Positions 24,102-50,311 are shown, numbered from the stretch's first letter. The stretch is DNA of 64,000 nt from Candidatus Lustribacter sp. (GCA_965277805.1 OZ255842.1:4608001-4672000), one strand, 5' to 3'. The notes: generated from the sequence alone by a model not told the origin. A program made the numbers and translations.

Positions 24102-24134
24102 ATGCCGACGCTACGCCGTCCGGCTCTAGCCGAC

Positions 24135-24150
24135 GGTGACGATAATCACG
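24135..24150. promoter_or_regulatory. CRP-type box GGTGAC-GATA-ATCACG; -10 TAGCGT (minus, 24108-24113); probable leaderless bchH promoter
   Basis: Centre 24142.5 is 41.5 bp from the bchH ATG (24101); -10 at -12..-7. Confidence 0.8.
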
Positions 24151-27927: not shown

Positions 27928-27989
27928 GGGGTTTTGACCTCACGGATGATGAAGTGCGATCAGCGTAACGCGCGAGCTGAGCGGACCTC

Positions 27990-28005
27990 GGTGATAGCCG
28001 TCACC
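27990..28005. promoter_or_regulatory. CRP-type box GGTGAT-AGCC-GTCACC; -10 TACGCT (minus, 27962-27967) for bchM-acsF-bchD
   Basis: 16-mer identical to the 51201 box; centred ~42.5 bp upstream of predicted TSS. Confidence 0.8.
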
Positions 28006-29626: not shown

Positions 29627-30559
29627 ATGACGCATACCGGACAACGAACGCGTGACGACGGTCACCGGAGCGGGAACTTCCCGGGCATCGCGAAGCGACG
29701 GCTCGTGCTGGATGTCGACCGGTCGTTTCGAGCGCTTGCTTCGGGTGGCGCGTTACACGTCGAAGGTTCGCCGCGCGGATCCGGCCTGTTGTTTTTGCAC
29801 GGCGTCGGCGGCGGCGCGTGGTCGTGGCGGTCGCAGTGCGACGCGTTCGCGGCGACGCATCGGCTCTTCGTGTGGGAAGCGCGCGGACATGGGGCGGCCG
29901 CGCGGATCGAAGATGCCGGACTCGCCGACTATTACACCGATGCGCAGGAAGCGCTGGCGGCAGCGGTTGACGAAGCGCGCGGCCCGGTCACCGTGGCCGC
30001 GCACTCGATGGGCGGTCTGCTCGCGTTCGCCTTGGCAACGCGCTACCCGGCCTCGGTAAAAGCGTTGTTTCTGGTCGACCCGGTGTATGCGACGGGTGAC
30101 GAAGCGTACGGCCACTTTTCGCCGCAGGCCGGCGCGATCGCGCGCGCGCTTTGTACGCCGTTGCTGCGCTCGTTCGCACGCGACGGCTTTTTGAGCCGGC
30201 TCGTTGCGCGCTGGGTGTTCGCGCGAGCGTTCGAAGATCGCGCGCGGATGGAGGCCGCGTGGCAACAGCAGCGACGCCAGATTCCGTTCGAGTATCCCCG
30301 CATGCTCGACGAGTCGTTCGGCCGGCCGGAGGGCTTCGAGCTGCGCGATTTCGCTCGCGAGATCAGCATTCCGACTGCGCTGATCGAAGGCTCGCCGGTA
30401 GCGGGGCGGATGCGTTTTCCGGCGCTGGTTCGCACGCTCGGCGAGCGCTTGGGGTCAAATTTCCGCCACGAGATCGTTGCCGGCGGTCACTACCTGCAGC
30501 TCGACCGGCCGGACGAAGTGAACGCGTTGCTGGCCCAGTTTCTCGAACGCTACGGCTGA
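29627..30559 (+). CDS. Alpha/beta hydrolase
   Basis: FLHGVGG, AHSMGG nucleophile elbow, GGHYLQLDRP; true start may lie further downstream. Confidence 0.85.
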   Translation: MTHTGQRTRDDGHRSGNFPGIAKRRLVLDVDRSFRALASGGALHVEGSPRGSGLLFLHGVGGGAWSWRSQCDAFAATHRLFVWEARGHGAAARIEDAGLADYYTDAQEALAAAVDEARGPVTVAAHSMGGLLAFALATRYPASVKALFLVDPVYATGDEAYGHFSPQAGAIARALCTPLLRSFARDGFLSRLVARWVFARAFEDRARMEAAWQQQRRQIPFEYPRMLDESFGRPEGFELRDFAREISIPTALIEGSPVAGRMRFPALVRTLGERLGSNFRHEIVAGGHYLQLDRPDEVNALLAQFLERYG

Positions 30560-31545
30560 CGTTTTTCCGGTACGCGAATGCGGCCCGCTACGATGGCCGC
30601 ACGGATGCGCTCGACGCGCGCGATGGTCGTGCTGCCGATGGTTCCGCGCGTGTAGGTGAAACCGGTCAGACCGATGCCGTCCTCGGCGAGGCCTAGCACG
30701 CGATGGCCGCTCTCTGATTTTCCGCCCGCGCTTTCGACGCACGCTCGCAGCGCCGCGTTGCCGGCGCGCTTCACGACGCTCGTCAACACCTTTCCCGGCG
30801 CCAAACCGTCTTGGTCGGTATCGGCGCCGATGGCATACGCGCGCGCATGGTGTGCAACGGTATCGATCGCCGCCAGGCCCGCGGGCCCGGCGACGACGAA
30901 CACGATGTCGGCACCGTCGGCCAGCGCAGTTCGCGCGGCGCCTGCGGCCGGGGCGGAATCGGTGAAGGACGTCAAGTAGCGCACGGTCGTGCGCACGGAC
31001 GGATCGGCGTAGCGCGCACCGGCAACGAATCCCGCTTCGGAACGCTGCAGCAACGGCACGTCGGCGCCGCCGATGAACGCAACGTGGTGCGTCTTCGAGA
31101 CGTACGCTGCCAGCGCGCCGGCGAGAAACGCGCCTTGCGCCTCGTCGAACGTAATCGACTGGACGTTCGGTAGATCCACCACGGCATCGATCAGCGCGAA
31201 ATGCGTGCCTTCGAAGCGGCGTGCTACGGTGGCCAACGCCGGGGCCTCGCCGTAGCCGACGCCGATAACGGTGTCGTATTTCTCGGTGGCATAGAGCACG
31301 AGCTTGGGCTCGATGTCGGCATCGCTCGCCGGCACCGCCGTGGCGACCGCGGCTTCCGTCTGTTTGGCACATGTCGTGAGCGCCGAACGGACGGCGTCGT
31401 TGAAGCCGTGGTCGCCAAAGCCTCCGGCGCCCGCGATAAATGCGATCTGCGGTCGCGGCGGCGCCGCCGCTTTCGCGCTGCAGCCTGCAGCGAGGACCGC
31501 CGCAACGCCGAGCGCGCTGCAGAACCGGGGAATGCGGGCGAACAT
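30550..31545 (-). CDS. BMP-family ABC substrate-binding lipoprotein
   Basis: Lipobox AAGC, GDHGFND, QGAFLAG, GADIVF, IGADTDQ, LTSVVK. Confidence 0.88.
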   Translation of the reverse strand: MFARIPRFCSALGVAAVLAAGCSAKAAAPPRPQIAFIAGAGGFGDHGFNDAVRSALTTCAKQTEAAVATAVPASDADIEPKLVLYATEKYDTVIGVGYGEAPALATVARRFEGTHFALIDAVVDLPNVQSITFDEAQGAFLAGALAAYVSKTHHVAFIGGADVPLLQRSEAGFVAGARYADPSVRTTVRYLTSFTDSAPAAGAARTALADGADIVFVVAGPAGLAAIDTVAHHARAYAIGADTDQDGLAPGKVLTSVVKRAGNAALRACVESAGGKSESGHRVLGLAEDGIGLTGFTYTRGTIGSTTIARVERIRAAIVAGRIRVPEKRQP

Positions 31546-31689
31546 GGGCGCTGCATGTACGCCTCCGCCCGTCGAGGACCTTCGGGCGTACCCAAGTCAC
31601 AGAACCGCCGTTCGTTCGGCGTTATCGTAAGCGTGGTGCTTGGGGTGAACATCGCCCGCGCCGGTCGTTGGAAGAGGGGGCCATACAGC

Positions 31690-32166
31690 ATGGGAGCATT
31701 TGCTACGGTGACGATGGCGGTCGATCTCACGCGGCGCCACAACGCCGCAGAAGCAGTGCAGTCGATCGTCGCGGGCTTTCCCGGCACGCGCAGCGTAGCG
31801 CTCGACGAGACCGCCGGTACGGTTACCTTCGATCTGCACTTTCCGGGAAACCTCAGCGGTTTGGTCCGCCGGCTATTCGACGGTTTGATCCCGGTGGGCG
31901 AGCAAGCACGAGTGTCGTTGCCGGTACAGAGCCTAGCGCCCGAGCTGATCGCCGGCGGTCCGGATATCGTCGCCGCGCGCGTCGTCGAAGGCGCGCACGT
32001 GTGGGACGTGGCGTTTGCCCGGGGCATGTACGTCGAGTCGGCCCGGCTCGATGGCGGACGCCTCGAAGCATCGATCGTCCCGCATTCGAACGCGATGCAC
32101 CAGATCTACGATTCGCTGCTAACGCTCGGTCTCGTCGTCAACGATCCGGCGGGGTCGCTCGTCTGA
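31690..32166 (+). CDS. Hypothetical protein upstream of crtB
   Basis: ATG 31690 after GAGGGGG; stop overlaps the crtB start. Confidence 0.65.
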   Translation: MGAFATVTMAVDLTRRHNAAEAVQSIVAGFPGTRSVALDETAGTVTFDLHFPGNLSGLVRRLFDGLIPVGEQARVSLPVQSLAPELIAGGPDIVAARVVEGAHVWDVAFARGMYVESARLDGGRLEASIVPHSNAMHQIYDSLLTLGLVVNDPAGSLV

Positions 32167-33053
32167 CCGCAAGCGCAGCCCTGGCCGCAGCGACCGTTCG
32201 CGCCCTCGAGCTCCCCGATGTCGACGCCAGCTACGCGCTGTGCCGCGACATTGCCAAGGAACACTCGAAGACGTTCTATTTTGCGTCGCTCTTTCTCACG
32301 CCCGAGAAGCGCCGCGCCGTGTGGGCGATCTACGCCTTCTGCCGTTCCGCGGACGACGTTGCCGACTCGTCCCAACCGGCCGCGCAGCGGCTTGCCGCAA
32401 TCGACGATTGGCAGGGCCGTCTCGTGGCGGCCTACGATGGGCGCCCCGACCACCCGTTGATGGTGGCGTTGGCCGACGCGGTCAAGCAGTTCCACATTCC
32501 GATCGAACCGGCGTTGCAGCTGCTCTCCGGCGCGCGCCAAGACGTGGTGGTGCGCCGCTACGAAACCTACGAAGAGCTGCGCCGCTACTGCTATCTCGTT
32601 GCCTCGACCGTGGGGCTGCTCGTATGCCCACTGCTCGGGTACGAATCGGGCGCACTCGGATACGGGATCGAGCTCGGGCGGGCAATGCAGATGACGAACA
32701 TCCTGCGTGACGTCGGCGAAGACAGCCGCCTCGGGCGCATCTATCTGCCGGCCGAAGATCTGCGGCGCTTCAACTACACCGAAGCGCGGCTGCTGGCGGG
32801 CACCGTCGACCGCGACTTCATCGCGCTGATGCGGTTCCAAATCGCGCGAGTGCGCGCCATGTACGAAGAGGCGGCTCCGGGGATCGAGTTGCTGGCGCCG
32901 GGCAGCCGCTACACGGTGCGCCTCGCACTCTCGTTATATCGCCGGATCCTCGCGGAGATCGAACGCAACGGATACGACGTTTTCACCCGCCGGGCGCACG
33001 TTCCGGCGCGCGCAAAACTCGTCACGGCCATGACGACCGCTTTGATCCGTTAA
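32163..33053 (+). CDS. crtB: Phytoene synthase; probable CTG start
   Basis: HSKTFYFAS, IYAFCRSADD, YCYLVASTVG, QMTNILRDVGED, GRIYLP. Confidence 0.93.
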   Translation: MTASAALAAATVRALELPDVDASYALCRDIAKEHSKTFYFASLFLTPEKRRAVWAIYAFCRSADDVADSSQPAAQRLAAIDDWQGRLVAAYDGRPDHPLMVALADAVKQFHIPIEPALQLLSGARQDVVVRRYETYEELRRYCYLVASTVGLLVCPLLGYESGALGYGIELGRAMQMTNILRDVGEDSRLGRIYLPAEDLRRFNYTEARLLAGTVDRDFIALMRFQIARVRAMYEEAAPGIELLAPGSRYTVRLALSLYRRILAEIERNGYDVFTRRAHVPARAKLVTAMTTALIR

Positions 33054-33054
33054 C

Positions 33055-34131
33055 GTGTCCAGTCAGCTCGCCACCCTGTTGCGTAAGGGCGCCCCGGTCT
33101 ACCGCGATCTGTGGATCGCGCAGTCGCGCGAAGGCTTCGGCACCGAACCCAAAGCGGAAGTCGTGCACCAGCACCTCGGCTATTGGGATGCGATCGCTAA
33201 GGCCGTCGAGGACAACGAGTTCTCCGAGCTGATGAAGCTCTCGCGGGAAGCGGGGCAGTACCAGTTCTCGATGAGCATCGATCTCTCCGAAGCGGTGCGG
33301 CGCACCGTCGAAGCGACGAACATGATCGAGATTGCGCTGCTCGAGGTCAACGACGAGGCTCCCTCGATCGAGATCATCAGCGAGATTGCCGAACTGCGCT
33401 CGATGATCGTGATGGCGGTCGTCGCGGGCTACAATGGCGCCTTCAGCGCGATGGAGAAGCGCCCGACGGCAAGCGATCCGTTACGTGTGGCCCTGATGCG
33501 GTCGCCGAAGAAATACTCGGCGGTCAATCTAAAGACGCGCGACGAGATTGCCCCGCTCTACGATGAGGAGATGCGTTTTTACGCCGTCGAGAGCGGCAAG
33601 GTACGCCTGTACAACCTCTTGCCGAACGGCCGCGCGATCACGCTCTCGATCCTGAGCGAAGGCGACGTGTTCTTCCAATGGCGCACGCAAACCGGCAGCT
33701 TGTCGTGCATCTGCGCTGAGGCAATGGCGCCCTCGCGCGTCATCGGGGTTTCCGAGAAGGATCTGATCGAGCTGCTCGGAGCGCAGCCTGCGGCCGCCGT
33801 CGACGTGATCGGCAACTTCGCGCGCCGCCTGACCGAGAGCCAAGTGCTGATCGAAGATCTCATGAACAACAGCATCAACCTGCGCCTGTATCGCACGTTA
33901 CTCGAACTCGCACGCGAGTTCGGGCGCAAGCCGGCGGCCGCCAATTCCGTGATCATCGACATGCCGCTCACGCATCAGCGCCTGGCCGATATGATTGGGA
34001 GCAACCGGGTCACGGTCACGCGGAAGTTGCTCGAGCTGCAAAAGCGCGGCGTGATCGCCGCACGCGGCAGCGGCTCGATCGAGATCCTCGATCTAGATGC
34101 GTTGAACCGCTTGACCGTCCACGACGACTGA
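33055..34131 (+). CDS. Crp/Fnr-family regulator with ~140 aa extra N-terminal domain; NtcA-like recognition helix
   Basis: VESGKVRL cNMP-like barrel; PLTHQRLADMIGSNRVTVTRKL HTH. Confidence 0.9.
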   Translation: MSSQLATLLRKGAPVYRDLWIAQSREGFGTEPKAEVVHQHLGYWDAIAKAVEDNEFSELMKLSREAGQYQFSMSIDLSEAVRRTVEATNMIEIALLEVNDEAPSIEIISEIAELRSMIVMAVVAGYNGAFSAMEKRPTASDPLRVALMRSPKKYSAVNLKTRDEIAPLYDEEMRFYAVESGKVRLYNLLPNGRAITLSILSEGDVFFQWRTQTGSLSCICAEAMAPSRVIGVSEKDLIELLGAQPAAAVDVIGNFARRLTESQVLIEDLMNNSINLRLYRTLLELAREFGRKPAAANSVIIDMPLTHQRLADMIGSNRVTVTRKLLELQKRGVIAARGSGSIEILDLDALNRLTVHDD

Positions 34132-34758
34132 GGCCCGCGGCACCATTGTCGCGACGCGCGCGGCGGGCACCGGCGGATTGCGGAGCGTGGGTTCGGTGCC
34201 TTCGCTCAGGCGCGCATAGCTATTGCGGAAGCGGCTCGCGACGAGCAGCAGCATCGCGACGCCCGCGAACGCGGCCGGGGCACCCGCAAAGAACCAGAGC
34301 GAAACGACCGTGATCGCTGCCGCCGTGAGCGAACCCGCGACGGCGTAGTTGCTGCCGGCCGCGACCGTAACCCAAACCCCGAAATAGACGATCGCGGCCG
34401 GCCAGCACACGCCGATCAGCGCGCCGAACTCGGCCGCAACGCCGGTGCCGCCGTCGAAGCGGCGCCACGGACAGTAGGTGTGTCCGGCTACCACGGCAAC
34501 GGCGGCGAGCAAGCCGACGTCGAGGCCGCCACCGTGGGTGGCGATCGCAACCGGGATTGCGGCCTTGACGGTGTTCATGGCCGGCGCGAGGGCGACCGCG
34601 GTACGGGCGATCCGCGCGTCCAAACCGGCGAAGAGCCAATGCATGATCGGCGTGACCGGGATCGAGCCCATCAGCACGGCAAAAACGACGGCGGCCAGCT
34701 CCCGGATGTAGAGATTGCCGTAGAACCAATTATGGAGCAGGGCCTCGTTGACGACCAT
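34093..34758 (-). CDS. plsY: Glycerol-3-phosphate acyltransferase PlsY-like
   Basis: LMGSIP, VVAGHTYCPW..FDGGTGVA; motif 1 (GSGNxGATN) appears missing. Confidence 0.7.
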   Translation of the reverse strand: MVVNEALLHNWFYGNLYIRELAAVVFAVLMGSIPVTPIMHWLFAGLDARIARTAVALAPAMNTVKAAIPVAIATHGGGLDVGLLAAVAVVAGHTYCPWRRFDGGTGVAAEFGALIGVCWPAAIVYFGVWVTVAAGSNYAVAGSLTAAAITVVSLWFFAGAPAAFAGVAMLLLVASRFRNSYARLSEGTEPTLRNPPVPAARVATMVPRASVVVDGQAVQRI

Positions 34759-34780
34759 CAGCTGCCTTTATCCGCTCGGG

Positions 34781-34796
34781 TGTGCCGACCGCTACA
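34781..34796. promoter_or_regulatory. Degenerate NtcA-type box TGTGCC-GACC-GCTACA; -10 TAGTAT 34819-34824
   Basis: Right half identical to the 35866 box; same ~-42.5 geometry. Confidence 0.55.
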
Positions 34797-34891
34797 ACGT
34801 GCGTGATGCATCGGGCGTTAGTATCATTTCACCACTCGAATGCCGTCCCTACTTTTTCGGGACTCATTGTGTGCTGGAGGAGAAAGCGTAC

Positions 34892-35086
34892 ATGCAAGCG
34901 ATTCGTCGCACCTTGCTGGCCCTCGCAGCAGTCGTGGCCGGCACGGCGCCTGCGGCTGCCCAAACGGCTGCAGCCACGACCGATACCGGACCAAGTCTGT
35001 TGTGGGTTTGGGTCTGGATTCTCGTCGCGGGCATCATCATCATGATCGTCGGCACCAGCCTCGGCGTCAACTCGAACCGCCGTTAA
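34892..35086 (+). CDS. Small protein: signal peptide + single TM helix (64 aa)
   Basis: GGAGGAG RBS; MQAIRRTLLALAAVVAGTAPAAAQ...LLWVWVWILVAGIIIMIVG. Confidence 0.75.
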   Translation: MQAIRRTLLALAAVVAGTAPAAAQTAAATTDTGPSLLWVWVWILVAGIIIMIVGTSLGVNSNRR

Positions 35087-35089
35087 CCG

Positions 35090-35176
35090 GTGTTCTGGAT
35101 TGTCATGGTGATCTTCGTGGCGGGAATTCTCGTCGCTCCGGTCATCGCGATACTCGCCGGCCGCCGAACGGGATAA
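35090..35176 (+). CDS. 28-aa single-TM peptide MFWIVMVIFVAGILVAPVIAILAGRRTG
   Basis: GTG 3 nt after the upstream stop; GC-rich third positions; TM followed by basic tail; below ORF-track cutoff. Confidence 0.55.
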   Translation: MFWIVMVIFVAGILVAPVIAILAGRRTG

Positions 35177-35200
35177 GTCGCTAAACGGACGGACCGGGCG

Positions 35201-35911
35201 ATGATGACCGTGCTCCACGTGTTCTTCGGGACGCTGGCACTCATCGTCGCGCCGGTAGCGTTCTGCGTGCGCAAGGGCGGCGCTTGGCATCGCCGGCTGG
35301 GCTTCGCGTTCATACTGGCCATGGCGATCGTGCTCTTCAGTGCCGGGTTTCTGTGGCAAGCCAAAGGTCATATTTTTCTGTTGCCGCTGGCCGCCGTCAG
35401 CGGCTATTTGATCTTCAACGGGTACCGCGCGGTCGTGCGGCATCGGCGGCCCGTTGCCGACCCATTTGAAGATCGCGTCGACATGCTCGCCGCCGGCATC
35501 GCGTTGCTGGCGGCGTCCGGCATCGTCTACCTGGCGGCGACCGCAGCCGGCCCGTTGATGCTGAGCATCCGCCCGGCGCTCGTGGGCATCGGCGCGATCG
35601 CCGTCGCCTTTGCGTCCAACGAGGTGCTGGGATTCTTCGGCCCGCGCATGCGGCTCGGTTGGCTCCTTTCACATTTTGCCGGCATGATTGCCGCCTACAT
35701 CTCCGCCGTCACCGCGTTCGCCGTGATCAACGCGCACGACGTCCCGATGATGGTGCGCTGGATCGTGCCGAGCACGATCGGCGCCTCCCTGATCGTGGGC
35801 CTCACGCTGCGTTACCTCCGGCGCGAGCGGCCGGTGGGGGTGGCCGGATCGAATTGCGGCGAGCCGGTAGCAACGGCTACAGCGCCCGGTCACCGTTTCG
35901 TACTACATTAG
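35201..35911 (+). CDS. Polytopic membrane protein (DUF2306-like)
   Basis: LHVFFG...RKGGAWHRRLG, WLLSHFAGMIAAYISAVTAF. Confidence 0.7.
   Translation: MMTVLHVFFGTLALIVAPVAFCVRKGGAWHRRLGFAFILAMAIVLFSAGFLWQAKGHIFLLPLAAVSGYLIFNGYRAVVRHRRPVADPFEDRVDMLAAGIALLAASGIVYLAATAAGPLMLSIRPALVGIGAIAVAFASNEVLGFFGPRMRLGWLLSHFAGMIAAYISAVTAFAVINAHDVPMMVRWIVPSTIGASLIVGLTLRYLRRERPVGVAGSNCGEPVATATAPGHRFVLH
35866..35881. promoter_or_regulatory. NtcA-type box GGTAGC-AACG-GCTACA (GTA-N8-TAC); -10 TACATT 35904-35909; puf promoter
   Basis: GTAGC/GCTAC palindrome centred ~42.5 bp upstream of predicted TSS ~35916. Confidence 0.75.
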
Positions 35912-35965
35912 CCGCACGTCGTTGCTAGAGGGCCGGTCGCCGGCTCTCAGGAGGGCACACTTTCC

Positions 35966-36139
35966 ATGACTCAAGCGGTGGTACTGGAGGTCGGGAACGA
36001 CCGCGTTCCCGACGTGTATCGCGACTTTTTCAACAACGCCGACTGGACGCTGCACAAGTTCGTCGTCGCAGGCTCCTGGTCGTTTTTCATCGTCGCAGTC
36101 GTCGCCCACATTTTCGTGTGGCTGTGGCGGCCGTGGTAG
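35966..36139 (+). CDS. pufB: Light-harvesting antenna beta subunit (57 aa)
   Basis: MTQAVVLEVGNDRVPDVYRDFFNNADWTLHKFVVAGSWSFFIVAVVAHIFVWLWRPW; AH..W.WRPW motif; AGGAGG RBS; absent from ORF track. Confidence 0.95.
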   Translation: MTQAVVLEVGNDRVPDVYRDFFNNADWTLHKFVVAGSWSFFIVAVVAHIFVWLWRPW

Positions 36140-36157
36140 GGAGTTGAGAAAAGCAGC

Positions 36158-36340
36158 ATGACCGTTCGTACAGGCTACAATTTCCGCGCGGTTCTCGGCG
36201 CCTACATCCTCGCCGGCGTCGTCGTCGCGTTCCTCATCCACTTCATCGTCCTCAGCTCGCCGCGCTACAACTGGATCTTTCCGGTAAACAGCACGACGAT
36301 GACGACGACGACCGTCAATCCAGCACCTGGGGCTAAATAG
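36158..36340 (+). CDS. pufA: Light-harvesting antenna alpha subunit
   Basis: AFLIHFIVLSSPRYNW motif. Confidence 0.95.
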   Translation: MTVRTGYNFRAVLGAYILAGVVVAFLIHFIVLSSPRYNWIFPVNSTTMTTTTVNPAPGAK

Positions 36341-36352
36341 GAGCGGAGCGCC

Positions 36353-37171
36353 GTGGCTGATCTCGAGTTTCTCGAGTTTGAGAGCGCCTATCGCAAGCCC
36401 GGCAACACGCTCTTCTCGTTGATCCTGGGCGACGACCCGTTCGATTTCTGGGTCGGCCGCTATTACGTCGGGTTCTTCGGAGTGATCGCGCTGGTCGCGA
36501 TCGCGATGGGGGTAACGATCCTCTTCGTCGCCGTCGGTCAGTACGGGGATTGGGATTTGTTACGTGCGGTGGTACCTTCACCGGACCGGTCGGTCGGTCT
36601 CGGCTGGGCGCCGTTCCTCCATGGCGGTGCGTGGCAAGCCGTGATCATCCTGGCGACGGTGTCGTTCGTCGCGTGGGGACTGCGCGAGGTCGATATCTGC
36701 CGCAAGCTTCAGATGGGCTTCCATATCCCGGCGATGTTCAGCTTGGCGATCTCCGCCTGGGTGGTGCTGCAGATCCTGCGGCCCCTGCTCATGGGCTGCT
36801 GGTGCGAGGGCTTCGATCTCGGCTTCACCGGTCACCTGACGTGGGTTTCCAACACCGGTTTCAAGTACCTGAATTTTTACGACAACCCGTTCCACGCATA
36901 CGCCGTCCTGGGGTTCTTCCTTACGGCGATGGTGCTCGCGATGCACGGCTCAGCGATTCTCGGCACGTACAACACCGATAAAGACCCCAACGTCGAAATG
37001 CGGCGCGAAGACTCGTTCTGGCGCGACTACGTCGGGTACTCGATCGGCGAGTACGGCATCCACCGCCTAGGCTTCTATCTCGCCGTCTACACGCTCGTCA
37101 TGTCGGATCTGTGCATCCTGACGAGCGGGACGCTGGTACAAGACTGGGTCGACTTTTGGCATCCATTCTGA
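36353..37171 (+). CDS. pufL: Type II reaction centre L subunit
   Basis: DPFDFWVGRYYVGFFG, REVDICRKL, GHLTWVSN, NPFH, AMHG, GYSIGEYGIHRLG. Confidence 0.98.
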   Translation: MADLEFLEFESAYRKPGNTLFSLILGDDPFDFWVGRYYVGFFGVIALVAIAMGVTILFVAVGQYGDWDLLRAVVPSPDRSVGLGWAPFLHGGAWQAVIILATVSFVAWGLREVDICRKLQMGFHIPAMFSLAISAWVVLQILRPLLMGCWCEGFDLGFTGHLTWVSNTGFKYLNFYDNPFHAYAVLGFFLTAMVLAMHGSAILGTYNTDKDPNVEMRREDSFWRDYVGYSIGEYGIHRLGFYLAVYTLVMSDLCILTSGTLVQDWVDFWHPF

Positions 37172-38178
37172 TGGCAACGATTCTTCCGCGCCCGATCGAG
37201 CCGCTCGAAGAGGCCGAACCCAGTTCGTTTGATCACGCGGATCCGCTCGGTATTCGCGCCGGCACGCCGACGCGCATCGATCGCTTACGACACATGATGG
37301 TCGATACGCAGGTCGGGACGATCTGGCTCGGTACCTGGGGCGTCTTTTCCGCGATGCTCTTCCTGGCCGGCACCGGCGTGGTCTTTCTGGCGGCGATGGA
37401 CCAAGTCGGCGGCAGTCCGTGGCTGGTGGTCAAGTACTTCGCGAACCTGAACCTCGCGCCGCCCGACGGGTTGGGTTTGGCCCACTCGCTTCGCAACGGC
37501 GGCTACTGGCAGATCACGCTTACATTATGGGCCGGCTCGACGATCTTTTGGGCGGCCCGCTGCTTCGAACGGCTCGCGCGTCACAAGTGGCGCCCGTTCT
37601 TGCTGTTCGCGTGGCTCTCGGCGATTTTTTTGACCGCGTGCATCTGGGTGTTCCATCCGCTGATCGTCGGCTCGTGGGCCGATGCGCCGGCGCTCGGCCT
37701 GAACTCCGATTTGCAATGGGCGCAGAACTTCAGCGTGCTGTGGGGTAACCTGTACTACAACCCCTTCCATCAGCTCGCGATTTTCTTCTTACTCGGCAGT
37801 ACGATGCTCTGGGGGATGCACGGCGCAACGATCCTCGCGACCGGCAGCGAGAGCAGCCATCACGAGGATGCCGAGATCAAGAACATGAGCTCGGGCTCCC
37901 AGAAAGCCGCGCTGTTCTGGAAATGGACCATGGGCTTCAACGCCTTTCCGAAGTCGATCCACGACTATCTGTGGTGGTTTGCGGTGGGAACGGTGTTGGC
38001 TTCGGGTATCGGCATCCTTACCACCGGCGTTATAACGCGGGACTGGTACGTTTGGGGCGTCGATCACGGTACCGTTTCGCAGTACGGTCCGATAACACGT
38101 GAGGCGATCAACGAGTATCCTCGGCCGATGCCTCCCATGCCGGCTCCGGGCGGCTACATGCCGGCTCCGGCCAGATAA
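37171..38178 (+). CDS. pufM: Type II reaction centre M subunit
   Basis: QVGTIWLG, GGYWQ, GNLYYNPFH, MHGATILA, ALFWKWTMGFNA, SIH; ATG overlaps pufL TGA. Confidence 0.98.
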   Translation: MATILPRPIEPLEEAEPSSFDHADPLGIRAGTPTRIDRLRHMMVDTQVGTIWLGTWGVFSAMLFLAGTGVVFLAAMDQVGGSPWLVVKYFANLNLAPPDGLGLAHSLRNGGYWQITLTLWAGSTIFWAARCFERLARHKWRPFLLFAWLSAIFLTACIWVFHPLIVGSWADAPALGLNSDLQWAQNFSVLWGNLYYNPFHQLAIFFLLGSTMLWGMHGATILATGSESSHHEDAEIKNMSSGSQKAALFWKWTMGFNAFPKSIHDYLWWFAVGTVLASGIGILTTGVITRDWYVWGVDHGTVSQYGPITREAINEYPRPMPPMPAPGGYMPAPAR

Positions 38179-38190
38179 GGCGCAACAGCG

Positions 38191-39102
38191 ATGCGGCGGA
38201 CTTGGCTTGGCGTTTTCACGATCGTGTTCGGTCTCACGTTCGGCGGCCTGATACAGCCGCTCGTCGAACGCACCCATGCCGCGACGATCGTTACCGGCGA
38301 AGACAACGGTGGAACGATCGGGACGGGCGTGGAGACTCCGCCGCACGCGCCGCGTTACGGTCCCGTGGATCAGAAGGCGCCGTTGGACTTCAAGACGCAG
38401 CCGGCGGGCGTTCCGCACGCCTATGCCGCCGGTCGCCTATACAACGTGCAAGTCCTCAAAGGCGGCTATGGCGACGTCGTCGCGCAGATGACGGATTACA
38501 CGCAAGCGCTGGGGGTCGGCTGCGAGTACTGCCACAACACGAGCAATTTTGCGTACGACACGCCGACGAAGCAAATCGCGCGCACGATGATCAAGATGGT
38601 CGGAAGCATTCAGACCGACTGGGTCGGGCCCGTTCATAAGGATTTTCCCAACTTTGCCGTCACCGGCGCCGTCGGGTGCATCACGTGTCATCGCGGTTCG
38701 CCGCTGCACCCGGTGGCCTACAACATCGTGCCCGTCCAGTATCTGGACTGGCCGGCGAAATCCAGCCGTCAGGCCGGCTTCGTCGTCAACTCGATGTACT
38801 CGGTGTCAAAATCGCTGGGCGTGAACTGCCTGTTCTGCCACAACTCGGCCGACTTCGTGACGCTCCAGTCGTATCCGACCAATCGGATCGCTCACCGGAT
38901 GTGGCAAATGGTCGACACGATCAATCACAAATATTTGCCCCCGAACATTGAAGCCGTTACGTGCTACACGTGCCATCACGGCGCAAAGTGGCCGACCGAA
39001 CTTGTTGCCGGAGGAGAAGATCAGTCTCCGGCAAAAGCGCGAGCCCTGCGCCCCGAAGTCCACCTCAATCCGGGAGCGCACACGGCCTCGGGAGTTCAGT
39101 GA
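38191..39102 (+). CDS. pufC: RC-bound tetrahaem cytochrome c
   Basis: Four CxxCH (CEYCH, CITCH, CLFCH, CYTCH); YNVQVL, ALGVGC, IARTMIKMV. Confidence 0.95.
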   Translation: MRRTWLGVFTIVFGLTFGGLIQPLVERTHAATIVTGEDNGGTIGTGVETPPHAPRYGPVDQKAPLDFKTQPAGVPHAYAAGRLYNVQVLKGGYGDVVAQMTDYTQALGVGCEYCHNTSNFAYDTPTKQIARTMIKMVGSIQTDWVGPVHKDFPNFAVTGAVGCITCHRGSPLHPVAYNIVPVQYLDWPAKSSRQAGFVVNSMYSVSKSLGVNCLFCHNSADFVTLQSYPTNRIAHRMWQMVDTINHKYLPPNIEAVTCYTCHHGAKWPTELVAGGEDQSPAKARALRPEVHLNPGAHTASGVQ

Positions 39103-39779
39103 TGGATTTCTTTTGGAGTCTGCCTAAAGCCAGCATCGCCGGTCTAAACGATCCGCTCAACGAGCTTTTTGCGACCGTCCAGCCGCGCCGATACGACGAG
39201 CGAACGATCATCAGCGATCCCGACAACGGACCGGAGCGCGCGTTCCTATGTACGAGCGGAACGCTGAAGGTTACGAAGCTGCTCTCCAACGGGCGCGAGA
39301 TCCTAATCACGATCCTCGAATCGGGTTCGATTTGGAGCGATCGTTCCTTGCTCAAGGGCTATTGGCGCGAGGTCTACATCGAGACGATGTCGGCCGTGAA
39401 TATGGTCTCGATCGAAAAAGAGGCGTTCGAACGGTACGTCTGTAGCGACTCGGAGCGCCTGACGCAGTTCATGATGCGGATCTCGGAACAGATGAGCGAT
39501 GCGCTCACGCTGCTCGAGGATTTCCGCGGGCGTGACGTCGCCTCGCGCCTAGCTTCCGTGCTCGTGCGCTTTTCCAAACAGTACGGCGTAGAGAAAGAAA
39601 GTTCGGTCGTCATCGACCTGCCGTTTACGCATCAAGACCTCGCCAACATGATCGGCACGGCTCGCGAAACCGTCAGCCGCAACATGGCCCGCTTCCGCGC
39701 CGAGGGCTACCTCCGGGGCGGCCAGATGGCTACTCTCGAGATCCTCAACCTCAATTCGCTCGAGGCCCTCATCGTCTAG
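39102..39779 (+). CDS. Crp/Fnr-family regulator, CRP-like recognition helix, translationally coupled to pufC
   Basis: SGTLKV..NGREI; PFTHQDLANMIGTARETVSR; TGATG overlap with pufC. Confidence 0.92.
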   Translation: MDFFWSLPKASIAGLNDPLNELFATVQPRRYDERTIISDPDNGPERAFLCTSGTLKVTKLLSNGREILITILESGSIWSDRSLLKGYWREVYIETMSAVNMVSIEKEAFERYVCSDSERLTQFMMRISEQMSDALTLLEDFRGRDVASRLASVLVRFSKQYGVEKESSVVIDLPFTHQDLANMIGTARETVSRNMARFRAEGYLRGGQMATLEILNLNSLEALIV

Positions 39780-39781
39780 AC

Positions 39782-39839
39782 GTCACCCCGGGGAGCAAAA
39801 CGGTACTCTCCCTCCCGCCGCCTGGCTCCTCGGGGTGAT
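39782..39839 (+). other. Stem-loop (GTCACCCCGGGGAGC / GCTCCTCGGGGTGAT) after the puf operon
   Basis: 15-bp inverted repeat with G-U pairs; no U-tract. Confidence 0.55.
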
Positions 39840-39849
39840 GGCTATCACC
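39834..39849. promoter_or_regulatory. CRP-type box GGTGAT-GGCT-ATCACC; -10 TACGAT 39871-39876 for bchFCXYZ
   Basis: Perfect 6-bp arms; centre 41.5 bp upstream of predicted TSS 39883; GGAGG RBS follows. Confidence 0.85.
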
Positions 39850-39898
39850 GCAGGCGGACGCCCCTGACCGTACGATAGCTGCGGAGGGCACCCCCCGA

Positions 39899-40381
39899 TT
39901 GCTATCTTTCACGTCGGTCCAAGAGCGGCGAGACGCAAGCAAATGGACGCGGATTCATCCGATTTTCGCCATTGGCCAGTTGGGCGTGTTCCTGGTCAGC
40001 GTCGTCCTGCTCGCGCTCTATGCCGCGCACCTGGTCCCGTTTGCCGCCGTCTACTTGAGTGTACTGCTCAAGATTGTCTTGATGGCCGGCGCGGTCGTAA
40101 CCGGCTCGCTCTGGGAGCACGACGTCTTCGGCGAGTGGTGGTTTGCCGAAGAGTTCTTCGTCGAGGACGTCATGACGTTGAACGTGTTTCTGCTGCACAT
40201 TGCGGTCGTCGTGATGTACTTCACCATGCCGCACCAGCTCGGCGCCGTCGCGGGACTCTTGGTCTTCGCATACGTGATCTACGCGATCAACGTCGCACAG
40301 TACATCACGCAGCACGCGAGCGCGCGCGCTCCGGCCGTCGCATCCGGTGAAGCCGTGAAGAAGACGGACGTCGCCGCGTGA
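39899..40381 (+). CDS. bchF: 3-vinyl bacteriochlorophyllide hydratase
   Basis: RRDASKWT, VTGSLWEHDVFG..FAEEFFVED, YAINVAQY. Confidence 0.93.
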   Translation: MLSFTSVQERRDASKWTRIHPIFAIGQLGVFLVSVVLLALYAAHLVPFAAVYLSVLLKIVLMAGAVVTGSLWEHDVFGEWWFAEEFFVEDVMTLNVFLLHIAVVVMYFTMPHQLGAVAGLLVFAYVIYAINVAQYITQHASARAPAVASGEAVKKTDVAA

Positions 40382-41328
40382 ACGCACGTGCCGTGGTCTT
40401 CGAAGAAGCCGGACGCGTCGATCTGCGTTCGGTCGAACTGCGTGCCGCTCAGCCCGACGAGATCGTCGTCGACACATCGTTTTCTTCAATTTCGAGTGGC
40501 ACGGAGCGGCTGCTGTTTGCGGGCAAGCTGCCGGGTATGCCGCAGATCCGATATCCGCTGGTTCCGGGGTACGAAGCCGCCGGAACGGTCACCGGCGTGG
40601 GTGAAGACGTGCGCGGTTTCGCGCTCGGCGACGCCGTGTTCGTCGGTGGCAGCATGTGTTATGCAGACGTCGCGGCAGCGTTCGGGGGGCAGTCGTCGCG
40701 CACGATCAAACGCGCGACGCAGGCCGTCCCGCTCAACGGCATCGAGCCCGCCCAGGCGCCGCTGCTCGCGCTGGCGGCGACGGCTTTGCACGGCGTACGG
40801 CGACTGGGCGATGTCGGCGGGTTGCGCGTTGCGGTGCTCGGGATGGGCGCGGTCGGACAGCTGGCCGCGAGCTTTCTTACGGCCGCCGGTGCCGAGGTCG
40901 TCGCGGTCGACCGTTCGGCCGAGCGTCTCGCGACCGCGAGCGCAGCCGAGAAGATCGACGTCAGCGGCGCGACGTTGGAAGAACAGCTTTCGGCGCCGGT
41001 GCAGCATGCAATCGAGGCCACCGGAATCTCGAGCGAGATCGCGCGTTGCGCGCGCGCGATGCAACTCGGGGGCAAGATCGTACTGCTCTCTTACTACGAC
41101 GAGGTCATGACGCCGTTCGTCGACTTGTTCGTCAAAGAGGCGACGCTGCTGGTGAGCCGCGAGTGGGCCTTTGACGATTTGCTCGCTGCGCGCGACGCAG
41201 TGGCCGGCGGAGCCGTCAAACTCGGGGCGCTCGCCAGCCACGTCATCCCGATCGAACGCTATAAGTCGGCCTACGAGACCGCGTTCAACGACCCGTCGAT
41301 CCTCAAGGTGGTGCTCCAATGGGCGTAA
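40378..41328 (+). CDS. bchC: Bacteriochlorophyllide a dehydrogenase
   Basis: SSISSGTERL, YPLVPGYE, LLALAATALHG, SREW. Confidence 0.93.
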   Translation: MNARAVVFEEAGRVDLRSVELRAAQPDEIVVDTSFSSISSGTERLLFAGKLPGMPQIRYPLVPGYEAAGTVTGVGEDVRGFALGDAVFVGGSMCYADVAAAFGGQSSRTIKRATQAVPLNGIEPAQAPLLALAATALHGVRRLGDVGGLRVAVLGMGAVGQLAASFLTAAGAEVVAVDRSAERLATASAAEKIDVSGATLEEQLSAPVQHAIEATGISSEIARCARAMQLGGKIVLLSYYDEVMTPFVDLFVKEATLLVSREWAFDDLLAARDAVAGGAVKLGALASHVIPIERYKSAYETAFNDPSILKVVLQWA

Positions 41329-42323
41329 GCAAAAACCTCACGGTCGCGATCTACGGCAAGGGCGGTGCGGGGAAGTCGTTTCTCACCAGCATGATCGCCA
41401 AAGCGCTGACCGCGCGCCGGAAGCGCGTGCTGCAAATGGGTTGCGACCCAAAACACGACAGCGTCGTGACGCATTTCGGCGGCGCGTTAATTCCTACGGT
41501 GCTCGGAACGTGGGCGAAGTTCGACGCCGAGGGCCGCGCCGACGATCTCGCGCCGGAAGACGTTATGTTCAAAGGCGACGGCGTCTATTGCATGGAGCTG
41601 GGAGGACCGGAATCGGCTCGCGGCTGCGGGGGCCGGGGCATCACGTTCGGATTCCAGATGCTGGAAAAGTGGGGCCTCTCGGAGTGGAATTTCCACTACA
41701 TGCTGCTCGATTTTCTGGGCGACGTCGTTTGCGGCGGCTTTGGTACGCCGATCGCGCGCTCGATGGCCGACAAACTGATCATCGTTTGCAGCAATGAAGC
41801 CCAGTCGATGTACGCGGCCAACAACATCGCCTCCGCCGCGCGCTATTTCGCCAATAACGGCGGCCGCACGAAATGTCTGGGCCTCTTCGTCAACAAGGAC
41901 GATGGCTCGGGCAAAGCCGATCGCATGGCGGACGCGCTCGGCATTCCGGTGCTCGCGAAGCTGCCGCTGCTGCCGCAGGACGAGGTCCTGGTCGACGGCG
42001 TCCCGCACCCGTTGATCGCGGCCGCGGTGGAGCGCGTGATCGCGGCGATCGATACCGTGGATGCGGTCGTTCCCGATGCGGTCGACTTCGTCGAGTTCAT
42101 GATGTCGCTGCACGGCAACGCCTCGAAGATGGATGGAACGGCAGTGACCTCCGATGAGCTGTGGACGCTCGGCGACAACGACGATCTGCTCGCCGGTGTT
42201 CCCAACGGCGGCCGGCCCGATCACCGGTATCTCGAGAGCGAAGACGACGCGGACCGTGCGTTCGGCCCGACGATCATCTCGGTCGGCGGCGGCGCAGTTC
42301 CCGCCGGCGCCTGGGAGCGCTAG
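41319..42323 (+). CDS. bchX: Chlorophyllide a reductase iron protein
   Basis: [47 protein letters not shown]. Confidence 0.93.
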   Translation: MGVSKNLTVAIYGKGGAGKSFLTSMIAKALTARRKRVLQMGCDPKHDSVVTHFGGALIPTVLGTWAKFDAEGRADDLAPEDVMFKGDGVYCMELGGPESARGCGGRGITFGFQMLEKWGLSEWNFHYMLLDFLGDVVCGGFGTPIARSMADKLIIVCSNEAQSMYAANNIASAARYFANNGGRTKCLGLFVNKDDGSGKADRMADALGIPVLAKLPLLPQDEVLVDGVPHPLIAAAVERVIAAIDTVDAVVPDAVDFVEFMMSLHGNASKMDGTAVTSDELWTLGDNDDLLAGVPNGGRPDHRYLESEDDADRAFGPTIISVGGGAVPAGAWER

Positions 42324-42332
42324 GGCAAGTAC

Positions 42333-43637
42333 ATGAGTAAACAGCCGTCGTCGATGTGTCCGGCGTTCGGTGCCGTGCGCAATCTGCTGCGCATGGAAGA
42401 TGCCATGCCGATCGTCATTTCGTCCGGTGACGGCTGCCTCTACGGCCACACGTTCGTCGCGCACTTCTACGTGGCCAACCGGCCGATCTATTCGCCCGGC
42501 GTCTCCTCGGAGATCTGGGCCAAGGGCAGCGCGTTCGACGAACTGCGCGCGATGGTCGTGCGGATGGCAGAAGAGCACCAGCCGGCGCTCATCCCGATCT
42601 GTTCGCTGTGCGTCTCGGACACCGTCGGCTTGCCGTTCGATCTGCTGCCCAAGCAGATCGGCAACACCGAAGTGGTCTACGTTCCGTTACCGGCGTACAG
42701 CGTGCACACGCACGCGCGGGCGAAAGACATCGTCGTCGATTCGCTGGTGTGGCGTCTGCCGCCGCAGCGGAAGGCGCGAGCCGGCGTCAACTTGATCGGC
42801 GAGATTTTTCCGTCGGATCCGATCAAGATCGACGAAGTCTTGCGCGCGATCGGGACGCACGTCAACACGCACGTGCCGGGCCCGCGCTGGGCAGATTACG
42901 TTGCAATGGTCGACGGCGCGCTTAACGCCCCGCTGCATCCGTTTTATAGCGAGAGCGTGAAGCGGATGAAGATGAAGCAGGGCTTGCCGTTCGTGGAGGG
43001 TGCGCCGGTCGGCATCGACGGCACCTATCGCTGGATCACGTCGGTCGGCACGGCGCTCGGGCTCGACCGGGCGACCGTCGAACGTGTCGCGAGCGACGAG
43101 CGCGAGCGCGTGCGGCTGGCGATTGCCGATTATCCGCTCAACGGATTGACCTTCATCGTGGCCGGCTACGAAGGGCACGAGTTTTTACTGGTGCGGCTCC
43201 TGATCGAAGCCGGCGCGAACGTCCCCTATCTCTCGACCGCAGTGAACGCGAACCCGCTGGCGCGCGAAGAAGCGGCCTGGCTCGAGGCGCACGGCTGCAG
43301 AGTGCTCTACGGCGCGAACTTCGAAGACGAGATCCGGGCGCTGACGGATCGCCCCTACGACTGCGTGATCGGCACGACGCCGCTCTGCGCCCACGCCAAA
43401 GAACTGGGCATTCCCTCGATCTACTATACGAACGCCATCGCGACGCGGTCGCTGATGCTCGCCTCGGGGGCGGCCGAGGTGCTGGGTCTGGTCGCGCAAA
43501 CCGTGCGCGCCAAGCCGCGCTACGACCGCATCGCGCGCTTCTTCGCCGCTGACGGCGCGAAGCTCGAGCGCTCGTACACGTCGTGGGCGCCGAAGATCGA
43601 TATCACGGCGCAGCTGATCGCCAACCGCGCGCTCTGA
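42333..43637 (+). CDS. bchY: Chlorophyllide a reductase subunit Y
   Basis: SMCPAFG, GCLYG, SLCV, LIGEIFPSDP, GAPVG, IGTTP. Confidence 0.92.
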   Translation: MSKQPSSMCPAFGAVRNLLRMEDAMPIVISSGDGCLYGHTFVAHFYVANRPIYSPGVSSEIWAKGSAFDELRAMVVRMAEEHQPALIPICSLCVSDTVGLPFDLLPKQIGNTEVVYVPLPAYSVHTHARAKDIVVDSLVWRLPPQRKARAGVNLIGEIFPSDPIKIDEVLRAIGTHVNTHVPGPRWADYVAMVDGALNAPLHPFYSESVKRMKMKQGLPFVEGAPVGIDGTYRWITSVGTALGLDRATVERVASDERERVRLAIADYPLNGLTFIVAGYEGHEFLLVRLLIEAGANVPYLSTAVNANPLAREEAAWLEAHGCRVLYGANFEDEIRALTDRPYDCVIGTTPLCAHAKELGIPSIYYTNAIATRSLMLASGAAEVLGLVAQTVRAKPRYDRIARFFAADGAKLERSYTSWAPKIDITAQLIANRAL

Positions 43638-45223: not shown

Positions 45224-45229
45224 GGAAGA

Positions 45230-50299: not shown

Positions 50300-50311
50300 C
50301 GGACGCCGGGG

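Follow-up and report, generated by a model that had tools for sequence, protein, structure and literature searches.

Genes of the locus

The 64,000-nt stretch of DNA analyzed here (the window; GCA_965277805.1 OZ255842.1:4608001-4672000, "Candidatus Lustribacter" sp.) is a photosynthesis gene cluster of a phototrophic member of the Eremiobacterota (WPS-2) from a little-studied group of light-harvesting soil bacteria. It encodes two regulators of the Crp/Fnr family, referred to below as Reg1 and Reg2, which flank the puf genes:

33055-34131, plus strand, Reg1, a 358-aa Crp/Fnr regulator with a predicted N-terminal globin-fold domain (residues 1-135), a cNMP-like beta-roll, and an HTH whose recognition helix reads RVTVTR (34006-34023)
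35966-39102, plus strand, pufB, pufA, pufL, pufM, and pufC, coding for the light-harvesting alpha and beta proteins, reaction-center L and M, and the tetraheme cytochrome
39102-39779, plus strand, Reg2, a 225-aa Crp/Fnr regulator with the recognition helix RETVSR (39663-39680)

The puf genes were assigned from their open reading frames, a CytoC_RC match, and synteny. Both regulators exceed the Pfam cutoffs for HTH_Crp_2 (E values of 8.9e-19 and 2.1e-19, respectively), cNMP_binding, and Crp, and have the beta-roll and C-terminal helix-turn-helix of the Crp/Fnr family. The best match of Reg1 among solved structures is the cyanobacterial nitrogen regulator NtcA (E value of 8.9e-17), which reads IGSTRVTVTR where Reg1 reads IGSNRVTVTR. 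In NtcA, only Arg186, Val187, Thr190, and Arg191 touch bases, and the V187E replacement abolishes binding (PMC11850224); Reg1 carries all four of these residues. In an alignment of the Reg1 family, Arg318, Val319, Thr320, Thr322, and Arg323 are invariant, and the RVTVTR helix is found in 7 of 8 Reg1 orthologs (the eighth has RVTITR) and in both paralogs. Reg2 carries the CRP-type Glu within an R-E-x-x-x-R helix; RETVSR is found in 7 of 7 Reg2 orthologs, and Arg188, Glu189, Thr190, Val191, Ser192, and Arg193 are invariant in 14 of 14 aligned orthologs. The stop codon of pufC and the start codon of reg2 overlap as TGATG.

Promoter elements

Two classes of palindromic elements, referred to as box A (GTGA-N6-TCAC) and box B (GTAGC-N4-GCTAC), were found upstream of the photosynthesis genes, in most cases followed by a −10-like hexamer of the form TAnnnT:

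17738-17779, minus strand, hemC promoter: box A (17766-17779, between hemC and a carotenoid gene), 22 nt, then TAGACT
24108-24149, minus strand, bchH-hemA promoter: box A (24136-24149), 22 nt, TAGCGT (24113-24108), 6 nt, then the bchH ATG (24101), an arrangement that predicts a leaderless mRNA
27962-28004, minus strand, bchM-acsF-bchD promoter: box A (27991-28004), 23 nt, then TACGCT
29652-29665, no strand assigned, box A between crtE (minus strand) and a hydrolase gene, with no TAnnnT at 22 to 23 nt on either side
31587-31627, plus strand, promoter-like element before orfX (31690-32166)-crtB-reg1: only the promoter-proximal half of box A (CGTACCCAAGTCAC), 22 nt, then TATCGT
34782-34824, plus strand, promoter of a small-ORF unit: variant box GTGCCGACCGCTAC, with GTG in place of GTA, 23 nt, then TAGTAT, before a 64-aa ORF with a signal peptide and a transmembrane segment (34892-35086) and a DUF2306-like gene (35201-35911)
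35867-35909, plus strand, puf promoter: box B GTAGCAACGGCTAC (35867-35880), 23 nt, then TACATT (35904-35909); the box lies in the last 45 nt of the DUF2306-like ORF, about 86 nt before pufB
39835-39876, plus strand, bchFCXYZ promoter: box A GTGATGGCTATCAC, 22 nt, then TACGAT
51174-51244, divergent promoters sharing one box A (51202-51215): leftward, 22 nt and TAACGT, leading to bchLNBGP; rightward, 23 nt and TAGGGT, leading to hemE-orf-hemH-hemY

The window contains 7 GTGA-N6-TCAC palindromes against 0.79 expected, a number reached in 0 of 100 shuffled sequences; 6 of these lie in promoter regions, and the seventh (40211) is inside bchF. By contrast, GTA-N8-TAC shows no enrichment in the window alone (3 found against 1.70 expected, with 21 of 100 shuffles reaching 3), and two of the three sites are inside genes, leaving the site before pufB. 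Five of the six promoter-region A boxes and both B boxes are followed after 22 to 23 nt by TAnnnT, against a background chance of 0.005 per direction. If TAnnnT is the −10 element, this spacing places the box centers at about −41.5 to −42.5, a placement supported by the predicted leaderless arrangement of bchH. Only 2 sigma-70 consensus promoters were found in positions 31000 to 46000, against 2.3 expected, and both are intragenic.

Conservation and distribution

Box A is specific to the cluster. The 5.53-Mb genome contains 67 GTGA-N6-TCAC palindromes, and the 64-kb window with its 7 is the densest bin, against a mean of 0.77. When N22-23 and TAnnnT are added to the pattern, 7 oriented matches remain genome-wide, 6 of them in the window, and the only match outside the cluster is inside a gene. 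Five phototrophic genomes contain 7, 4, 4, 4, and 3 such composite matches, against 1, 2, 0, 0, and 1 for the reversed control pattern, whereas five nonphototrophic relatives contain 0, 0, 0, 1, and 0. Box A precedes bchF in 7 of 7 genomes and in 49 of 50 metagenomic loci, bchM in 5 of 5 regions that contain it, bchH in 3 of 3, and bchL in 3 of 3, including the genomes of the relatives designated G005 and G011. In both of these genomes, the bchH ATG likewise sits 6 nt after the hexamer, so that this arrangement is conserved in three genera. Boxes also lie near crtE or the hydrolase gene in two other relatives, designated L022 and L023.

Box B precedes pufB in 8 of 8 genomic and 33 of 33 metagenomic puf operons, and the variant box of the small-ORF unit is conserved in L023 and in 6 of 11 metagenomic loci. 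The metagenomic loci include near-duplicates, so that these counts overstate the number of independent cases. In both classes of boxes, the half-sites stay fixed while the central bases vary. However, generic GTA-N8-TAC composites are not enriched genome-wide, with 8 found against 18 for the reversed control in genome G000.

The regulators travel with phototrophy. Of the 41 genomes examined, pufM is present in 4; Reg2 orthologs (64 to 67% identity) are found in the same 4 and Reg1 orthologs in those 4 plus one more (G024), which contains bchM-acsF. Reg2 lies directly behind pufC in 5 of 7 genomes and in 45 of 49 metagenomic loci; in G011, in the genome of another relative (G021), and in the remaining 4 metagenomic loci, it does not, and its promoter there shows neither box.

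A possible regulatory cascade

The earlier note observed that the puf operon is flanked by two Crp/Fnr genes with NtcA-like and CRP-like recognition helices and that the two corresponding motif classes divide between puf and the small-ORF unit on the one hand and bch and hem units on the other. This observation is confirmed and is strengthened by comparison with relatives, where the boxes could have proved not to be conserved, an outcome the note had named as contrary to its proposal. The note further inferred that the first regulator switches on pufBALMC together with the second, which then switches on pigment synthesis; the data support this interpretation only in part.

In the explanation favored here (with a rough probability of 0.55), the photosynthesis gene cluster of phototrophic Eremiobacterota would be driven by two classes of activator-dependent promoters that lack a −35 element, each with a 14-bp palindrome centered about 41.5 nt before the predicted start site. 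Reg1 would bind box B and switch on pufBALMC and the small membrane-protein unit, with its globin-fold domain serving as a putative sensor. Since reg2 is the last gene of the puf operon in most genomes, Reg2 would be made together with the reaction center, bind box A, and switch on six operons (bchFCXYZ, bchH-hemA, bchM-acsF-bchD, bchLNBGP, hemE-hemH-hemY, and hemC), thereby coupling pigment supply to apoprotein supply. The analysis establishes the genes, the boxes, their conservation and spacing, and their co-occurrence with phototrophy; binding itself, the assignment of each protein to its box, activation as opposed to repression, the order of the tiers, and the signals sensed are inferred from sequence alone, and no RNA run was found to contain this stretch. 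The assignment of helices to boxes agrees with the published work on the NtcA structure (PMC11850224), and the layout of the elements is similar to that of NtcA-activated promoters, which carry GTAN8TAC centered near −41.5 (PMC3898017).

Some observations do not fit a strict hierarchy or a clean functional split. The half-site before orfX-crtB-reg1, which is also found in L023 (spacer of 22 nt) and L022 (spacer of 21 nt), suggests a feedback loop. In the relatives, B-like boxes precede the carotenoid operons orfX-crtI-crtB (in G005 and G011) and crtI-crtB (in G021), as well as a second bchF-like gene, and one A box lies 164 nt before the B box of one puf copy in G011. Also against the favored explanation, in a cultured member of the phylum, light against dark changed bchM only 2.9-fold and pufL 1.9-fold (PMC9758169).

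Alternative explanations

The strongest alternative, which is possible but less likely, is that both boxes and both regulators are as described but do not form a linear cascade. Reg1 and Reg2 could be parallel sensors of different signals or could form a mutual positive-feedback loop, with box B driving puf-reg2 and the box A half-site driving orfX-crtB-reg1. In addition to the half-sites in the window, L022, and L023, this view is consistent with the separate intergenic region of reg2 in G011 and G021 and with the presence of a separate predicted sensor domain in Reg1 and of a cNMP-like domain in Reg2. Against it stand the position of reg2 directly behind pufC in most loci and the finding that five of six reg1 upstream regions in more distant relatives show no half-site of either box.

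A more doubtful possibility is that box A is read by a different Crp paralog or that the assignment is swapped, in which case Reg2 would have another role. This genome encodes two paralogs with RETVNR helices and one with RETVSL, and R-E...R helices in general read GTGA half-sites. However, those paralogs (about 30% identical to Reg2) are also present in nonphototrophic relatives, where the composite box is nearly absent, and the loss of NtcA binding to GTA boxes upon replacement of Val187 by Glu (PMC11850224) argues against a swap. It is unlikely that the palindromes are operators for repression, as with PpsR/CrtJ in purple bacteria: although the start sites are only predicted and some boxes lie only 41 to 43 nt from annotated start codons (bchH and hemE), the fixed spacing to a −10-like hexamer without a −35 element is that of class II activators, the promoter-proximal half-site is the better conserved half in B-like boxes, and the short distances are explained by the predicted leaderless starts conserved in three genera.

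Comparison with characterized systems

No published description of this arrangement was found. The principle is not new, since in the ANR-DNR cascade of Pseudomonas and the FixK2-NnrR cascade of Bradyrhizobium one Crp/Fnr regulator switches on a second one, which then switches on the pathway genes. Those cascades control denitrification and microoxic respiration, and their two tiers read similar FNR-type boxes, whereas here the two boxes differ and the second regulator is predicted to be cotranscribed with structural genes.

In Rhodobacter sphaeroides, two Crp/Fnr-family proteins, FnrL and CrpK, directly control photosynthesis genes such as bchE and hemA (PMC4263372). However, they share nearly the same motif, have overlapping regulons, are global (only about 6% and 10% of their operons are photosynthetic), and act alongside PrrA and PpsR; FnrL has an iron-sulfur cluster, and neither is encoded in the puf operon. 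Neither Reg1 nor Reg2 carries the N-terminal Cys cluster that holds the [4Fe-4S] center of FNR-type oxygen sensors; the conserved Cys218 and Cys220 of Reg1 lie in the beta-roll.

The earlier note also pointed to the absence of ppsR, aerR, and regAB from the window as a difference from purple bacterial control, which is supported here for PpsR. PpsR/CrtJ, which acts with AerR or AppA in purple bacteria, is a repressor that binds TGT-N12-ACA. A profile search (TIGR02040) of five phototrophic Eremiobacterota genomes gave a best score of 32.3 bits against a cutoff of 275.4, although none of the 14 control genomes is a purple bacterium and the search therefore had no positive control. The TGT-N12-ACA palindrome occurs 4 times in the window against 4.56 expected, in each case inside a gene.

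Reg1 shares with NtcA the base-contacting residues R-V-x-x-T-R, and the element before pufB has the layout of the NtcA target, GTA-N8-TAC centered near −41.5 with a TAN3T −10 box (PMC3898017, PMC11850224). It differs in its extra 135-residue domain (NtcA has about 222 aa and no extra domains), in its host, and in its proposed targets, which are reaction-center genes rather than nitrogen assimilation. The NtcA segment SDRF aligns to a gap in Reg1; this segment holds a 2-oxoglutarate-binding arginine. Reg2 resembles CRP/GlxR-type class II activators in its R-E-x-x-x-R helix and in its proposed site, GTGA-N6-TCAC centered at about −41.5, but its putative regulon appears confined to the photosynthesis cluster, its gene sits inside the puf operon, and the base before GTGA is usually G or C, not T.

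The N-terminal domain of Reg1 resembles those of globin-coupled sensors and nonheme sensor globins (BpeGReg, HemAT, the RsbR N-domain, and pXO1-118), although its output is a Crp/Fnr module. In a structural comparison of its predicted model (pLDDT of 88), all 50 top matches were globin-fold or phycobiliprotein-fold chains, with Z scores from 7.8 to 11.3 and about 125 aligned residues; Z scores below about 13 are not decisive for helical folds. The best Foldseek hit had an E value of 0.048 and a probability of 0.99 to 1.0. In a 27-sequence alignment, no His residue is invariant within residues 1 to 135, and His40 is nearly so.

Gene content of the photosynthesis gene cluster

Pfam scans of the GC3-supported ORFs identify the window as a photosynthesis gene cluster, whose closest named relatives are metagenome-assembled genomes labeled Eremiobacteraeota or Vulcanimicrobiota. 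The following genes were assigned.

16796-17713, minus strand: hemC
18921-20210, minus strand: hemA
20211-24101, minus strand: bchH
to 27927, minus strand: bchD, acsF, and bchM (27927 being the limit of bchM)
28533-29609, minus strand: crtE
45230-51145, minus strand: bchPGBNL
31690-32166, plus strand: orfX, coding for a conserved 158-aa protein without a Pfam match
to 33053, plus strand: crtB
33055-34131, plus strand: Reg1, a Crp/Fnr family regulator
34093-34758, minus strand: a PlsY-like gene
34892-35086, plus strand: a small ORF
35201-35911, plus strand: a DUF2306-like gene
35966-39102, plus strand: pufBALMC
39102-39779, plus strand: Reg2, a Crp/Fnr family regulator
39899-45223, plus strand: bchFCXYZ
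from 51251, plus strand: hemE-orf-hemH-hemY

The window carries two porphobilinogen deaminase genes: one (3833-5764) is fused to siroheme-synthase-like and HemD-like domains, and the other is the stand-alone hemC at 16796-17713, whose position behind a box A (see below) suggests a copy dedicated to photosynthesis. The observation made in the earlier note, namely, that two Crp/Fnr genes flank the puf operon and that two classes of palindromes lie before the photosynthesis genes, holds, with the qualification given below for GTA-N8-TAC. The recognition region of Reg1 reads IGSNRVTVTRKL and that of Reg2 reads IGTARETVSRNM; the best solved-structure match of both proteins is NtcA, whose helix is IGSTRVTVTRLL. 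The stop codon of pufC and the ATG of Reg2 overlap as TGATG.

Box A, a promoter element specific to the cluster

The palindrome GTGA-N6-TCAC (box A) occurs 7 times in the window against 0.79 expected, and none of 100 shuffles reaches 7. Six of these sites lie in promoter regions and one lies inside bchF. The 5.53-Mb genome holds 67 such palindromes, and the window is its densest 64-kb bin, with 7 against a mean of 0.77. Five of the six promoter-region boxes are followed after exactly 22 or 23 nt by TAnnnT, a hexamer whose background chance at that spacing is 0.005 per direction; the box at 51202 has it on both sides, serving bchL and hemE. The composite pattern (box A, 22-23 nt, TAnnnT) has 7 oriented matches in the whole genome, of which 6 are in the window and the seventh is inside a gene. 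Five genomes with photosynthesis genes hold 7, 4, 4, 4, and 3 matches, against 1, 2, 0, 0, and 1 for the reversed control pattern, whereas five nonphototrophic relatives hold 0, 0, 0, 1, and 0.

In the regions of relatives that were compared, the composite box precedes bchF (7 of 7 genomes), bchM (5 of 5), bchH (3 of 3), and bchL (3 of 3), while bchN in two relatives (genomes G005 and G011) has the box without the hexamer. Of the 80 metagenomic loci returned, 68 were analyzed, the other 12 having 22-29% identity and not being orthologs. In these 68, the composite box precedes bchF in 49 of the 50 loci that include bchF, and the last locus has the box alone; there are 28 distinct 14-mers, with fixed half-sites and varying centers.

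Among other strict A boxes of the genome, three lie in repeats in gene-free stretches: near-identical copies of GTGATCC(T/C)C(A/G)TCACGCAA (two identical, the third differing at two bases) are found at genome positions 2484808, 4852057, and 5085495 in long stretches without protein-coding signal, and are probably repeated RNA operons or repeats that are unrelated to the regulon. One box (GTGACCGATATCAC, genome position 4985763) lies 36 nt before a gene for cytochrome c oxidase subunit II with a fused cytochrome c domain, and one precedes an ORF of 121 aa with no known identity; neither has TAnnnT at 22-23 nt. The former could link respiration to the same regulator or be due to chance.

Box B and related palindromes

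In contrast to box A, the generic pattern GTA-N8-TAC occurs only 3 times in the window against 1.70 expected, which is not significant, and only the site at 35867 is in a promoter position. However, all 8 puf operons of the seven genomes carry GTA(G/A)C-N4-(G/A)CTAC before pufB, followed by 22-23 nt and TAnnnT (box B), as do 33 of 33 metagenomic loci with enough upstream sequence. The small-ORF unit of the window has the variant GTGCCGACCGCTAC, followed by 23 nt and TAGTAT; the same variant occurs in L023, a locus of a relative, and in 6 of 11 metagenomic loci. In relatives, B-like boxes with a conserved promoter-proximal GCTAC(A) also precede pairs of small membrane-protein genes, orfX-crtI-crtB in G005 and G011, crtI-crtB in G021 (a further relative), and a second bchF-like gene that lies next to a Reg1 paralog. 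A one-mismatch match to box B at 31693, GGAGCATTTGCTAC, proved to be the first codons of orfX (MGAFAT) and was discarded.

Generic GTA-N8-TAC composites are not enriched genome-wide. Many of them belong to a third palindrome, GTAAG-N4-CTTAC, followed by 22-23 nt and TAnnnT, that occurs in phototrophs and nonphototrophs alike (positions 906995 and 5120846 of this genome, and relatives G006, G007, and G020). One site is identical in this genome and G006. This motif probably marks the regulon of another Crp-like protein.

Promoter architecture

If TAnnnT is the -10 element, the centers of the boxes lie at about -41.5 to -42.5, which is the layout of NtcA-activated promoters (PMC3898017). Independent support comes from bchH: in the window (24099-24113) and in the bchH promoters of G005 and G011 (loci L046 and L049), representing three genera, the conserved ATG (MK[VI]VGYSSWAPDE) sits exactly 6 nt after the hexamer (TAGCGT), as expected for a leaderless mRNA, so that a leaderless bchH-hemA transcript is predicted. 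The same distance is seen for bchL of G005 and for hemE of the window, which has a TTG start. Consensus sigma-70 promoters are not enriched in 31000-46000, with 2 found against 2.3 expected, both of them intragenic.

Distribution of the regulators

The genome set comprises 41 genomes, that of the window and 40 relatives, one of which (G036) is unpublished and counts only as a negative. In this set, pufM was found in 4 genomes, and Reg2 orthologs with 64-67% identity were found in the same 4, all other hits being paralogs with 24-32% identity. Reg1 orthologs were found in those 4 genomes and in G024, a relative whose genome is 80% complete and holds bchM-acsF next to Reg1. Reg2 always lies just before bchF or bchC, whereas Reg1 lies after crtB in the window's type and before bchM-acsF in G005, G011, G021, and G024. 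The recognition helices are conserved: RVTVTR occurs in 7 of 8 Reg1 orthologs (the eighth has RVTITR) and in 2 of 2 paralogs, and RETVSR occurs in 7 of 7 Reg2 orthologs; wider alignments agree.

Predicted sensor domain of Reg1

Residues 1-135 of Reg1 occur only in Crp/Fnr proteins of about 355-385 aa (73 clusters), and neither Pfam nor the ESM Atlas gave a match for this domain. A structure search with the whole Reg1 model returned only Crp-family cores, and the N-terminal domain was therefore folded alone, with a pLDDT of 88 and a pTM of 0.77. The resulting model matches globin-coupled sensors and a sensor-globin sporulation inhibitor (Foldseek E value of 0.05, probability of about 1). In a search that does not rely on Foldseek, all 50 listed chains have globin or phycobiliprotein folds, including the RsbR N-domains, with Z scores of up to 11.3, although for helical folds such values are suggestive and not decisive. 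No histidine is invariant in the alignment, although His40 is nearly so, and Cys218 and Cys220 in the beta-roll are conserved. A globin-fold sensor joined to a Crp/Fnr DNA-binding module would add an output type to globin-coupled signaling.

Assignment of the regulators and the inferred cascade

In NtcA, only Arg186, Val187, Thr190, and Arg191 touch bases, and changing Val187 to the Glu of CRP abolishes binding to the NtcA box (PMC11850224). Reg1 has all four of these residues and Reg2 has the Glu, so that Reg1 should read GTA...TAC and Reg2 should read GTGA...TCAC. Two further paralogs have RETVNR helices, but they also occur in relatives that lack the composite box and are therefore less likely to be its readers.

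The Reg2 gene is the last gene of the puf operon in 5 of 7 genomes, and pufC lies directly before it in 45 of the 49 metagenomic loci with at least 700 nt of upstream sequence; in the other four, it is preceded once by crtB and three times by other genes. In this view, the production of Reg2 should depend on the box-B promoter. Two findings argue against a strict hierarchy. In G011 (locus L029) and G021 (contig 5, locus L030), where Reg2 is not behind pufC, it has its own upstream region that shows no half-site of either box; these two regions share a short conserved stretch (GCAGGGCTCT...CGGTCCAAGCG). In addition, orfX-crtB-Reg1 in the window and in L022 and L023, two loci of relatives, has the promoter-proximal half of box A at the right spacing, which would close a loop. 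On the other hand, five of six Reg1 upstream regions in more distant relatives show no half-site, which fits Reg1 being the top sensor. No RNA data set covering 33000-40500 was found.

The interpretation offered in the earlier note, that the two boxes are split by function between two regulators acting in a two-tier cascade, is thus supported in part. The cis-elements and their split are established by comparative evidence; the pairing of each protein with its box, including the binding itself, is inferred from sequence but likely, and the cascade is likewise an inference that is plausible on present evidence.

One possibility, tentative and somewhat less likely than not, is that phototrophic Eremiobacterota run their whole photosystem from a self-contained two-protein circuit not seen in other phototrophs. 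A globin-coupled, NtcA-type activator would sense oxygen, redox state, or a tetrapyrrole and fire the reaction-center operon, the last gene of which encodes a CRP-type activator that would in turn fire every step of tetrapyrrole and bacteriochlorophyll synthesis, from hemA to bchG and bchP. Pigment would then be made only when apoprotein is being made, and the circuit would do the job that PpsR/AerR and RegBA do in purple bacteria.

Comparison with described systems

PpsR was not found in five phototrophic genomes, and its palindrome, with a 12-nt spacer, is not in excess in the window. If the proposed circuit is correct, the problem of matching bacteriochlorophyll synthesis to apoprotein synthesis, and so of avoiding free phototoxic pigment, is solved here by activators and not by the PpsR repressor. 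The closest experimental system is that of FnrL and CrpK in Rhodobacter sphaeroides (PMC4263372). Crp/Fnr cascades such as ANR-DNR are known, so that the principle of the cascade is not new. Term searches showed that the two genome papers on phototrophic Eremiobacterota do not mention Fnr, PpsR, or any photosynthesis regulator in their main text (PMC9758169 and PMC6664022), although the gene tables in the supplements of PMC9758169 may list these regulators, and a 2025 review does not mention Crp or Fnr (PMC12654162). Full-text searches for Crp/Fnr together with the phylum or with photosynthesis gene clusters found no description, and a search pairing globin-coupled sensors with Crp returned no paper holding both among those listed. 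Nothing on how phototrophic Eremiobacterota control their photosynthesis genes appears in the literature that could be searched. The present analysis provides a testable wiring diagram with two regulators, two boxes, about eight promoters, and start sites predicted about 7 nt after each TAnnnT, including that of leaderless bchH, and a cultured phototroph of the phylum exists. The two boxes can also be used to spot photosynthesis operons, and unannotated small subunits, in metagenomes.

Additional genes associated with the boxes

Small proteins with a signal peptide and one membrane helix are encoded behind B-type boxes next to puf, in the window (34892-35086) as well as in G011 (loci L027 and L028) and G021 (locus L042). 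They carry the motif LLWVWVWIL in the window and PYYYGGYPGPP(A/T)WFWIL in relatives, have no Pfam match, and may be unrecognized reaction-center or antenna subunits. The orfX product heads the carotenoid operon, which is orfX-crtB-Reg1 in the window and orfX-crtI-crtB in G005 and G011. In G011 (L027) and G021 (contig 14, loci L043 and L044), a Reg1 paralog (31-37% identity, same RVTVTR helix) lies next to bchH-like and bchD-like genes (27-28% identity) and a second bchF-like gene that carries a B-type box. This could be a second, separately controlled chelatase module, and it is absent from the window. In G011 (L027 and L028), the puf operon with its promoter is present twice, about 28.5 kb apart, with identical tblastn scores.
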